A DNA stretch of 64,000 nucleotides from Candidatus Latescibacterota bacterium (GTDB lineage Bacteria > Latescibacterota > UBA2968 > UBA8231). Every line of letters begins with the position of its first letter. Position 1 is the stretch's first letter. The stretch is taken from NCBI GenBank assembly GCA_965243025.1, contig CBDETY010000003.1, positions 5,952,001 to 6,016,000 of the forward strand. Reading direction: 5' to 3'. A program made the translations under genes and the position numbers. This document shows positions 29,698-30,033 of this stretch, piece after piece. The notes under the pieces were generated by a model, which did not search any database, had not been told where the DNA came from, and was given only the letters and a program-made list of their open reading frames with translations.

Positions 29698-30033
29698 TTA
29701 ATAATCCCAGCAATGACATTCGTCATTTTGGACATGGCACCAATATCCGCCTGTGCAGCTTTCTGAGGCACAAAACGATGCGCACTGCCAATCTGCGTTA
29801 CAGCTTCCTCCCTGTACACTGCAGGCTTCGGCTCTAGCGGTGTCCGGGGCCCCAAACACCACCGCCGCGGCGATCAGCAACCCCCCGGTCCACGCGACCG
29901 GAAACCCCTGTTTCGAGCTGACTTCGCCGGATTCGCTCCGGACGAACTCCGCGATGAACCCGCTCCCAAGGGCGGGCCCGGCGGCCTCAACGAGGCCTTT
30001 TGCGACCGTCAGGGCCGCATTCAAGATATGCAT
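29698..30033 (-). CDS. Cys-rich precursor 2: conserved leader, hydrophobic helix, 8-Cys core
   Basis: EFVRSESGEVSSKQGFPVAWTGGLLIAAAVVFG-PDTARA then C-6-C-5-C-3-C-4-C-5-C-6-C-1-C-WDY; GAGGA RBS. Confidence 0.82.
   Translation of the reverse strand: MHILNAALTVAKGLVEAAGPALGSGFIAEFVRSESGEVSSKQGFPVAWTGGLLIAAAVVFGAPDTARAEACSVQGGSCNADWQCASFCASESCTGGYWCHVQNDECHCWDY

Follow-up and report, generated by a model that had tools for sequence, protein, structure and literature searches.

We analyzed a 64-kb window from the genome of a Candidatus Latescibacterota bacterium (positions 5,952,001 to 6,016,000 of contig CBDETY010000003.1; the coordinates below count from the first nucleotide of this window). 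The open reading frame at 29698-30033 on its minus strand encodes precursor 2, which belongs to what is almost certainly a family of secreted, cysteine-rich peptides with a conserved leader. On balance, we think that precursor 2 is the pre-pro-form of a secreted anionic peptide of about 43 amino acids with four disulfides, and that it is matured by an adjacent A24-family aspartic peptidase, by signal peptidase I, and by a redox module. The family suggests a previously undescribed route to variable secreted peptides, in which the peptidase and the disulfide enzymes travel with the leader.

The frame at 29698-30033 is a real gene of a real family. A protein homologue search gave 26 homologues at E ≤ 0.01 from 53 candidates (best E 2e-59). 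Wherever an origin is stated for these, it is an assembled metagenome (ena); P0025, which is encoded by the window's own genome, has none. When we compared a profile of the precursors to 1.84 billion representative sequences, 68 clusters matched at E ≤ 1e-3, of which 20 reached E ≤ 1e-10 and 2 reached E ≤ 1e-30. The profile also has matches in 36 of the phylum's 168 genomes. Purifying selection acts on the leader (the ratio of nonsynonymous to synonymous divergence, dN/dS, is 0-0.49 in 12 of 12 paralog pairs), so the frame of precursor 2 is constrained as coding.

The window contains a paralogue, precursor 1, and an out-of-frame remnant of a third leader (Table 1). The preliminary description of this DNA gave the open reading frame and the core of precursor 2 correctly. 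As it stated, precursors 1 and 2 have the leader segment ESG.V...QGF..AWTGGLL.AAAV in common, and their cores share a GSC, the x5 and x3 spacings, and a terminal CHCW on a scaffold of eight cysteines. Elsewhere in the genome, two precursor-like genes (C3:5256421-5256717, E 3.5e-11, and C3:5259542-5259823, E 7.8e-8) lie amid copies of a secreted family of ~320 amino acids (see below), far from any A24 gene. Two narrow peptide patterns, the only ones used on contigs, gave 174 matches in metagenome contigs, with no relatives among them. In genome contigs, the same two patterns led to a stretch of a betaproteobacterial metagenome-assembled genome (33% identity); it does not match the hidden Markov model (HMM) of the family, and we treated it as spurious.

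The core of precursor 2 contains eight cysteines, with spacings of 6, 5, 3, 4, 5, 6, and 1, and zero Lys or Arg, and its net charge is -5. The acidity of the core, which the preliminary description had pointed out, extends to the family: among 81 cores, 68 have a negative net charge, 3 are neutral, and 10 are positive. There are eight cysteines in 55 of the 81. (Two of these cores, P0019 and precursor 1 as read from the upstream stop, were mis-cut and include leader residues.)

Judging from its sequence, the core probably adopts the cysteine-stabilized alpha-beta (CS-alpha-beta) fold of cis-defensins and scorpion short toxins. In precursor 2, C84-x3-C88 and C106-x-C108 are flanked by C78 and C99, which is the cysteine pattern of this fold. 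To count conserved columns, we used an alignment of 75 family members (A2). In these members, C84 is invariant and six other cysteine columns (C71, C78, C88, C99, C106, and C108) are at least 90% conserved. At the gamma-core, the family consensus reads C-x-x-G-x-C, with G-T-C in precursor 1 and G-Y-W-C in precursor 2.

Comparisons to known families point in the same direction. The 75 members gave 12 weak matches to defensin or toxin families in Pfam (E up to 1): Gamma-thionin (5), AtDEF-like (2), Defensin_big (2), Toxin_2 (1), Myticin-prepro (1), and Defensin (1). P0023, which is 46% identical to precursor 2 and has the same type of leader, matches the whole Toxin_2 model with 25.2 bits versus a cut-off of 25.1 (E 2e-5). 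In sequence profile searches against the PDB, 12 of 13 weak matches, and 57 of the best 60 of 68, were to peptides that we assign by name to the CS-alpha-beta class, and these aligned cysteine on cysteine. They were scorpion K+ or Na+ toxins, plectasin, plant defensins, and xanthusin-1. In the alignments, the six canonical cysteines correspond to C78, C84, C88, C99, C106, and C108, with C71 and C93 as an additional pair.

Three observations weigh against this fold. The G-x-C of the gamma-core is G-x-x-C (G-Y-W-C) in precursor 2. Also, precursor 2 itself has no Pfam match above cut-off, and no defensin or toxin family matches it at E ≤ 1. And the PDB matches are individually non-significant, with a best E of 0.13.

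The preliminary description proposed a diversifying family on a fixed scaffold, and it suggested comparing the conservation and dN/dS of leaders and cores. Both comparisons agree with its proposal, as the cores are clearly more variable than the leaders. Across 22 sequences (alignment A1; 231 pairs), the mean pairwise identity is 0.657 for the leader, versus 0.32 for the core, or 0.19 for the core without the shared cysteines. The core is more similar than the leader in just 20 of the 231 pairs. Nei-Gojobori counts for 12 paralog pairs from four genomes put the dN of the core above that of the leader in every pair. The core's dN/dS could be computed for 11 pairs: five have values above 1 (1.33-2.35), and the other six have 0.2-0.9.

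Synonymous divergence is raised in the cores too, so positive selection alone is not demonstrated. For instance, dS for the pair L048a/b is 0.022 in the leader versus 0.342 in the core, and dS is saturated in several of the core comparisons. A pair of precursor genes at 2.825 and 2.821 Mb of the window's own genome shares a 268-nt block with 95% identity that covers the leader only and ends ~12 nt into the core; past this block, their DNA cannot be aligned. Because the cores are rich in synonymous changes and the 95% block stops at the leader, recombination or homogenization of the leader contributes. We conclude that exchange of core segments behind a homogenized leader is part of the cause of diversification. 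In a recent 4.7-kb duplication (L030/L031), non-synonymous and synonymous changes number 11 and 2 in the core and 0 and 1 in the leader, but the core is not the sole peak of divergence, as other windows of the duplication are equally divergent. At another locus (L043 9894-10295, minus strand), a frame with the look of a recombination scar has the N-terminal part of the ~320-residue secreted family in front and the final ~25 residues of a precursor core (...C-x-C-Y) behind.

The leader, the A24 peptidase, and the redox genes

In alignment A2, the consensus of the leader is F-x-x-S-E-S-G-x-V-x-P-x-x-G-L-P-x-A-W-x-x-G-x-L-x-A-A-A-V-x-L-G-x-P-x-x-A-x-A-x-x-C, and the cysteine frame follows. The leader has two parts. 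In the N-terminal extension and just after it, the conserved columns are F30 (67/75), E34 (58/75), S/T35 (69/75), G36 (72/75), and V38 (64/75). Many family members have a short leader that begins ~9 residues ahead of F-x-x-S-E-S-G. The second part looks like a Sec-type signal: by a rule-based reading, it has a basic n-region (positions 39-42 are often R or K), a hydrophobic h-region (positions 44-60), a helix breaker, and small residues at -3 and -1. Its conserved columns include G/S/A43 (69/75, with G in 48), L/F44 (67/75), W48 (73/75), G61 (63/75), and P63 (59/75). Signal peptidase I sites follow the (-3,-1) rule, and here the two positions would be A66 (61/75, or 72/75 if Ala, Ser, Val, Thr, and Gly are counted) and A68 (72/75), shortly before the first cysteine (71/75). 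Signal peptidase I would then cut after A68.

The gene just upstream of precursor 2 encodes an intact A24 peptidase (PF01478). A second A24 gene, near precursor 1, is broken: within 24130-25142, residues 289-345 are in another frame and there is one TGA; this copy may be misassembled or a pseudogene. Both catalytic-type Asp residues (in TDLK and in PGDAK) are present in 10 of 10 A24 orthologues. These proteins have a C-terminal extension of ~220 amino acids, and the subfamily with this extension comprises 42 clusters whose sole Pfam domain is PF01478. Some of the relatives with the extension are labelled by two sources as "prepilin peptidase" or "Flp pilus assembly protein protease CpaA."

The precursors and this type of peptidase occur together. 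Among 41 related genomes, six contain a precursor, and the A24 subfamily is found in those six and in G039, where a distant precursor lies immediately after the A24 gene. Across the 168 genomes of the phylum, PF01478 has matches in 52. Of the 36 genomes with a precursor, 31 have an A24 match, and the two are at most 4.5 kb apart in 27 of the 31 (by hand tally; 28 if a search with the family HMM is included). The exceptions include two fragmented assemblies and a third genome with only a 190-residue fragment of A24. High-scoring A24 matches (57-83 bits), in frames of ~250-390 amino acids (most 250-300), are in families without precursors, and the three precursor-bearing families have low-scoring matches (24-45 bits), in frames of mostly 350-570 amino acids.

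The window's own genome is 96% complete (one 6.78-Mb contig and two small ones). It has four matches to PF01478: three are directly beside precursors, and the fourth is 3.4 kb from a distant member of the family (C3:160918-161214). We searched this genome for filament components. There was no T2SSE ATPase (PF00437) at E ≤ 1e-5 and no N_methyl protein (PF07963) at E ≤ 0.01. PF04964 (Flp_Fap) gave one unrelated match at E ≤ 1 (E 0.78) and none at the precursor loci. Flp was found in none of the 168 genomes of the phylum.

Given these associations, we somewhat favor the view that the A24 peptidase processes the leader of the precursor. In all A24 substrates known to us, cleavage follows a Gly or some other small residue and takes place on the cytoplasmic face of a hydrophobic segment whose N terminus is inside the cell. 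The leader offers two candidate sites: after G36, at the end of F-x-x-S-E-S-G, or after the small residue at position 43. Some observations do not fit. The leader matches neither PF04964 nor PF07963 (and the 25 families listed for these 75 members do not include PF04964). Glu is missing at +5; were the leader cut after residue 43, this position would be Trp. The conserved Gly and the hydrophobic stretch are 8 residues apart. With Glu+5 missing and the Gly 8 residues away, the leader fits no known pattern of A24 substrates. Since it fails both the Flp and the N_methyl tests, this leader, if it is associated with A24 at all, would be of a new kind. Also, 5 of the 36 genomes with precursors lack an A24 match; one of these assemblies is 75% complete, and the sole precursor match in another has E 4.5e-4.

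The leader is not confined to small peptides, as in the sister genus g14 it also precedes open frames of 273-344 amino acids with two or three cysteine-rich repeats. Two of these frames (~330 amino acids) were scanned, and both have a C-terminal FlgD_ig domain (E 1e-11) and a match to Por_Secre_tail that is below the cut-off.

The same gene cluster encodes a flavin mononucleotide (FMN)-binding-like protein and two thioredoxin-fold proteins. In the direction of transcription (all on the minus strand), the order is a sigma-54 element, the intact A24 gene, precursor 2, a hairpin, the gene for a 324-residue secreted protein, the leader remnant, and a 323-residue copy of the secreted protein, followed by a second sigma-54 element, the FMN-binding-like gene, the CGAC protein, the CPYS protein, the broken A24 gene, precursor 1, and a stem-loop. 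Mapping with tblastn and HMMs places the FMN-binding protein, trxB, trxA, and A24 with at least one precursor, in varying orders, in three families of the class. Such loci occur twice in G002, three times in G012 (as trxA, precursor, secreted protein, and A24), and in G019 and G001. In another family, a cassette in G115 contains three tandem precursors. In genus g14, the order is A24, FMN-binding, trxB, and trxA, and then three modules of a precursor and a 729-residue FG-GAP protein. (At L048 5277-13702, there are three tandem modules of a precursor and a ~730-residue FG-GAP-repeat protein, and these FG-GAP proteins end in the same FlgD_ig-type domain. In the window's own genome, proteins whose N-terminal region is similar to the FG-GAP proteins flank the distant precursor at C3:160918-161214.)

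We also lean towards the view that the thioredoxins and the flavoprotein are a dedicated oxidative folding system for the peptide, based on their gene linkage and their motifs. The flavinylation motif [ST]GAT is present in the window's FMN-binding-like protein and in 12 of 12 orthologues, and ApbE is encoded elsewhere in the genome (E 2.7e-75). All 13 orthologues of trxB (the CGAC protein) have CxxC; of the 15 orthologues of trxA (the CPYS protein), 12 have CxxC and 3 have CxxS. On the other side, FMN_bind (PF04205) scores just 15.3 bits, versus a cut-off of 22, for the protein at 26270-26872, and TlpA/ResA-like proteins are usually reductants. Nor is there an evident route across the outer membrane, as the search of the genome gave no ATPase of type II secretion.

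A proposed maturation route and its alternatives

We propose that the hydrophobic segment of the precursor would insert into the membrane with its N terminus inside and its C terminus outside. The adjacent A24 peptidase (GxGD-type and CpaA/TadV-like) would then cut at the cytoplasmic face. It might do so after G36, which would be Flp-like (...E-S-G), or after residue 43, which is placed like a class III site, though the residue is Gly in only 48 of 75 members. A cut by signal peptidase I after A68 would release the peptide. The two membrane-anchored thioredoxin-fold proteins would form and shuffle the four disulfides, with the flavinylated FMN-binding protein as their electron partner. The register of CS-alpha-beta toxins predicts the disulfides C78-C99, C84-C106, and C88-C108, with C71-C93 as the extra one. 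Transcription would be driven by the sigma-54 promoters, with a strong hairpin behind each precursor gene. Fast amino-acid change, together with the swapping of core segments behind the homogenized leader, would diversify the cores, and therefore each genome would hold an arsenal of different peptides. The likeliest role of the peptide is that it acts antagonistically or on a host.

A broader form of this proposal is that a CpaA/TadV-like GxGD protease, in the absence of pilus machinery, has become the dedicated peptidase of a leader with a prepilin-like pro-segment and a Sec signal, and that, with flavin/thioredoxin folding and sigma-54 control, it matures both anionic defensin- or toxin-like peptides and larger cysteine-rich proteins. 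We advance this tentatively, and we would put its chances at a little under even.

The conservation of the leader could be explained in another way. It is conserved well beyond the needs of export, and among paralogues it is near-identical at the DNA level, so perhaps the leader fragment itself might be functional, for instance as a cytoplasmic signal. The A24 peptidase would then act after signal peptidase I, as a signal-peptide peptidase that clears or releases the leader. A24 enzymes are GxGD intramembrane aspartic proteases, like the eukaryotic signal peptide peptidase, which cuts signal peptides with N-in/C-out topology after signal peptidase has acted. However, we know of no bacterial A24 enzyme that is a signal-peptide peptidase, and F-x-x-S-E-S-G lies outside the membrane segment, as expected for a site of recognition or cleavage. 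This alternative seems unlikely to us. Another issue is whether the peptide is released at all. As far as we know, all A24 substrates, such as pilins and archaeal proteins with class III signals, retain their hydrophobic segment, and in the precursors a small residue and L/F abut the hydrophobic stretch (positions 43 and 44). If the segment stayed as an N-terminal anchor, then the cysteine-rich knob would be displayed on the membrane or would be part of a fiber. But the near-invariant G-x-P-x-x-A-x-A directly ahead of the first cysteine suits signal peptidase I, Glu+5 is missing, and an assembly ATPase, Flp, and N_methyl proteins were not found in the genome. The presence of the leader on ~330-residue proteins with a C-terminal FlgD_ig or sorting-type domain also argues for soluble cargo, and we consider an anchored peptide distinctly improbable.

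It is also conceivable that A24 is a mere neighbor with some other substrate. The leader would then be an unusual Sec signal with a regulatory or targeting extension, and the thioredoxins would serve general redox reactions in the envelope. This would account for the five precursor-bearing genomes without an A24 match and for several precursor copies in the window's own genome that are far from any A24 gene, although dispersed precursors can be served in trans. It would not account for the five genes staying together while their order shifts between lineages, or for all four A24 genes being near precursors in a genome without detected pilus genes, and we think that it is quite unlikely. Finally, a conserved leader with a hypervariable core is a hallmark of peptides that are made on ribosomes and modified after translation (RiPPs), and the preliminary description framed the family in terms of such a leader and core. 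In a classical RiPP or class II bacteriocin precursor, the leader would serve to direct modifying enzymes or an ABC exporter of the double-glycine type. Scans of the cassette with Pfam and NCBIfam gave only the A24, thioredoxin-fold, and FMN-binding-like proteins; no radical SAM protein, YcaO, lanthionine enzyme, or C39-ABC exporter was found among the cassette genes. Nor is there a GG motif in the leader, which has a Sec-type signal instead. A RiPP pathway is thus highly improbable. The term "precursor" remains apt for a protein whose leader is predicted to be removed, but not in the RiPP sense, as the cassette has no RiPP-modifying enzyme.

Regulatory elements and neighboring genes

The features of the window, along with the long leader-bearing frames from genus g14, are listed in Table 1.

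Table 1. Features of the precursor cassettes and their surroundings. Positions are in the window unless another locus is named.
Feature	Position	Strand	Remarks
Precursor 2 gene	29698..30033	minus	111 aa; ATG start; stop codon 29698-29700; from ORF, homologues, and leader constraint
Shine-Dalgarno GAGGA	30040..30044	minus	6 nt 5' of the precursor 2 ATG; from sequence
Leader extension, residues 1-36	29926..30033	minus	ends F30-x-x-S-E-S-G36, candidate A24 cleavage/recognition motif
Sec-type signal, residues 37-68	29830..29925	minus	basic residues, hydrophobic F/L44...L60, G61-x-P63-x-x-A66-x-A68
Predicted mature 43-aa peptide, residues 69-111	29701..29829	minus	C-x6-C-x5-C-x3-C-x4-C-x5-C-x6-C-x-C; no Lys/Arg; net charge -6 by hand count
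Precursor 1	23607..23960	minus	118 aa; paralogue of precursor 2 with same leader and scaffold; six-frame scan
Third leader, out-of-frame remnant	28304..28447	minus	28326-28401 is 84% identical to 29900-29975 (repeat D9)
A24-family aspartic peptidase, intact	30143..31216	minus	357 aa; PF01478 E 3.5e-9, 37.5 bits vs cut-off 26.5
Second A24 gene	24276..25142	minus	PF01478 E 2.3e-10; broken near C-terminus by in-frame stop/frameshift
FMN-binding-domain-like protein, membrane-anchored	26270..26872	minus	DGISGAT; PF04205 E 0.032, below cut-off
TlpA/ResA-like thioredoxin, CGAC	25735..26277	minus	AhpC-TSA E 7.5e-11; ResA-like subfamily match below cut-off
Second thioredoxin-fold protein, CPYS	25139..25699	minus	monothiol in this genus; AhpC-TSA E 7.4e-9
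Secreted 324-aa protein	28617..29591	minus	directly downstream of precursor 2; family of 83 paralogous loci in own genome
Second copy of secreted family	27317..28288	minus	323 aa; 93% identical to 28617-29636
Sigma-54 type -24/-12 element TGGCACGAATTGTGCA	31356..31371	minus	140 nt upstream of A24 start
Second sigma-54 type element TGGCATGAATTGTGCA	26950..26965	minus	78 nt upstream of FMN-binding gene
Perfect 14-bp stem-loop, then GUUUG	29616..29651	minus	-35.5 kcal/mol, z -4.18; 0/200 shuffles fold as well
Long stem-loop with U-rich tail, after precursor 1	23507..23592	minus	-45.2 kcal/mol, z -4.75; 0/200 shuffles fold as well
Sigma-54 activator (receiver-PAS-AAA-HTH)	16591-18456	minus	candidate regulator
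Histidine kinase	18513-19583	minus	candidate regulator
Long leader-bearing frame, g14	L046 7810-8841	minus
Long leader-bearing frame, g14	L047 6821-7813	plus
Long leader-bearing frame, g14	L047 7832-8650	plus

The two sigma-54 elements are the sole matches in the window with at most one mismatch; 0.81 matches are expected, and 20 of 100 shuffles gave at least two. The two elements are not independent, because both lie in an upstream region of ~330 nt that is repeated ahead of each cassette (26844-27159 and 31253-31567, 87-97% identity). Farther upstream in the repeat is a small hairpin with a T run (27116-27130 and 31524-31538). In 244 kb of related loci (both strands), all five exact matches are on the gene strand, just upstream of an operon or precursor, and rpoN was found in the genome. 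It is possible that the activator and the kinase at 16591-19583 regulate the cassette. A scan for sigma-70 promoters found 3 sites versus 1.9 expected, none of them usefully placed.

The hairpin at 29616-29651 sits between the stop codon of precursor 2 and the next gene, and a simple terminator scan also matched at 29620-29632 (the scan found 9 terminator-like sites, versus 8.2 expected). This hairpin could be a terminator, an attenuator, or a stabilizing element. In the region 22000-33000, Rfam gave no match at E ≤ 1.

Upstream of the gene for the 323-residue protein, 27160-27288 retains part of the FMN-binding gene's 5' end (60% identity over 45 amino acids; repeat D8). This remnant is a scar of the rearrangement that formed the double cassette.

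The evidence from sequencing reads comes from contigs only, from four runs. In X20, which is from an RNA library, the bin for the core (29692-29782) has no cover, and a single 159-nt contig with 13 differences lies over 29912-30063. Because this contig is from a relative and because carry-over of DNA is possible, it shows neither expression nor silence. In all four runs, the summed depth of contigs is several-fold higher in the leader bin than in the core bin; this fits a conserved leader and is not a measurement. Joints such as 29602>29883 are best explained by the leader remnant at 28304-28447 and not as variants. Some runs with small shares of the stretch, X20 among them, are labelled as sponge metagenomes.

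The ~320-residue secreted family has 83 loci in the 6.8-Mb genome, often in tandem; those in the window are at 27317-28288, 28617-29591, 22497-23501, and 20502-21413. The 324-residue protein has no match in Pfam, NCBIfam, or the PDB. It has 527 homologues; the 120 that are listed are all unnamed or "hypothetical," and one distant homologue contains PF06452 (CBM9-like). A member of this family follows most of the precursor genes in this genus, but this is so in only some genera overall. Since it is missing from the cassettes of other genera, the 324-residue protein is not a core part of the cassette. Relatives bear the source labels "Gemmatimonadetes" or "Candidatus Latescibacteria."

Other families in the window are expanded as well. 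The family of the DUF6785/DUF6784 membrane protein at 33118-35049 (E 2.8e-125) has 49 loci across the genome. There are also PhyH-type dioxygenases (35075-35866 and 15697-16566) and an unnamed family of 487-residue proteins (31532-32995; 16 loci). A 699-residue protein with a caspase (Peptidase_C14) domain (41841-43940) and a TonB-dependent receptor (37014-39665) have no evident link to the cassette.

Comparison to known systems

In its size, its predicted secretion, and its CS-alpha-beta cysteine pattern, the peptide resembles bacterial cis-defensins such as xanthusin-1 from Myxococcus xanthus (7unx), which was among our weak PDB matches (E 1.5). The portion of PMC11561630 used here describes 74 bacterial cis-defensins in five proposed classes, from Proteobacteria (including myxobacteria), Acidobacteria, and Actinobacteria. 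In class III, a fourth disulfide engages the first cysteine, as we predict for precursor 2. In contrast to the cis-defensins described in that portion, the peptides described here are from another, small phylum; their cores are mostly anionic, hypervariable, and present in multiple copies; and they have a two-part leader and a dedicated cassette of A24, thioredoxin, and FMN-binding genes. According to the same portion, plain signal peptides were selected and sequences with predicted transmembrane segments were removed. That filter would exclude the leader of the precursors.

The register C...CxxxC...C...CxC is also that of scorpion short-chain K+ channel toxins (PF00451, Toxin_2), plant gamma-thionins, and plectasin. 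Those are peptides of eukaryotes, most of them cationic, and they have six cysteines or a different fourth bridge. The precursor family differs in its extra pair of cysteines (the first and the fifth) and its negative charge, and precursor 2 is not a member of those Pfam families.

The leader and the peptidase are reminiscent of the Flp prepilin and TadV/CpaA. The A24 enzyme has no methyltransferase domain, close relatives are named CpaA by one source, and the leader has a short segment ending in ...E-S-G ahead of a hydrophobic segment, as in the Flp motif. Unlike Flp, the precursors do not match PF04964, lack the G/xxxxEY, have ~8 polar residues between the Gly and the hydrophobic stretch, and have a signal peptidase I site after that stretch; and neither Tad nor other pilus machinery was found. 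Also, unlike TadV/CpaA, the peptidase has the subfamily-specific ~220 amino acids at its C terminus. As far as we know, A24 peptidases process only pilins, pseudopilins, archaellins, and anchored archaeal proteins.

In having a constant leader, a fast-changing mature part on a fixed frame of cysteines, and many copies per genome, the family is like the precursors of conotoxins and the prochlorosins. The enzymes, the organisms, and the chemistry are different, with disulfides as the sole predicted modification here.

The portion of PMC8238504 used here defines the flavinylation motif as [S/T]GA[S/T] and describes hybrid extracytosolic electron-transfer systems with thioredoxin-like and flavinylated proteins. 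The window's cassette is similar, with an FMN-binding domain encoded beside thioredoxin-like proteins and ApbE in the genome. The partners given in that portion are DsbD, DUF3570, DUF4266, and P19; A24 peptidases and cysteine-rich peptide substrates are not mentioned there. A study of Latescibacterota from sponges (PMC12993501) mentions neither prepilins nor pili, defensins, bacteriocins, or secretion systems. In the papers and parts of papers covered by our search, we found no link between a prepilin peptidase and cysteine-rich or defensin-like peptides. The peptide is probably of the secreted, CS-alpha-beta-like kind that is already known from bacteria; its maturation cassette may be new in kind.

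If our proposal is correct, then an A24 peptidase that is dedicated to secreted peptides, in genomes without genes for type IV filaments, would be a new role for these enzymes and would come with a new kind of leader. It would define a new class of maturation pathway for ribosomal peptides and the first class of bacterial A24 substrates that are neither filament subunits nor anchored proteins. Together with the two thioredoxins and the flavoprotein, the peptidase makes up a small set that looks portable and could aid the heterologous production of disulfide-rich peptides, and the many natural cores amount to a library on a single scaffold. Bacterial cis-defensins, of which there are few so far, would extend to an uncultured lineage and to a form that is mostly anionic, multi-copy, and fast-diversifying. 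This wider range of defensins bears on the origin of defensin and toxin scaffolds.

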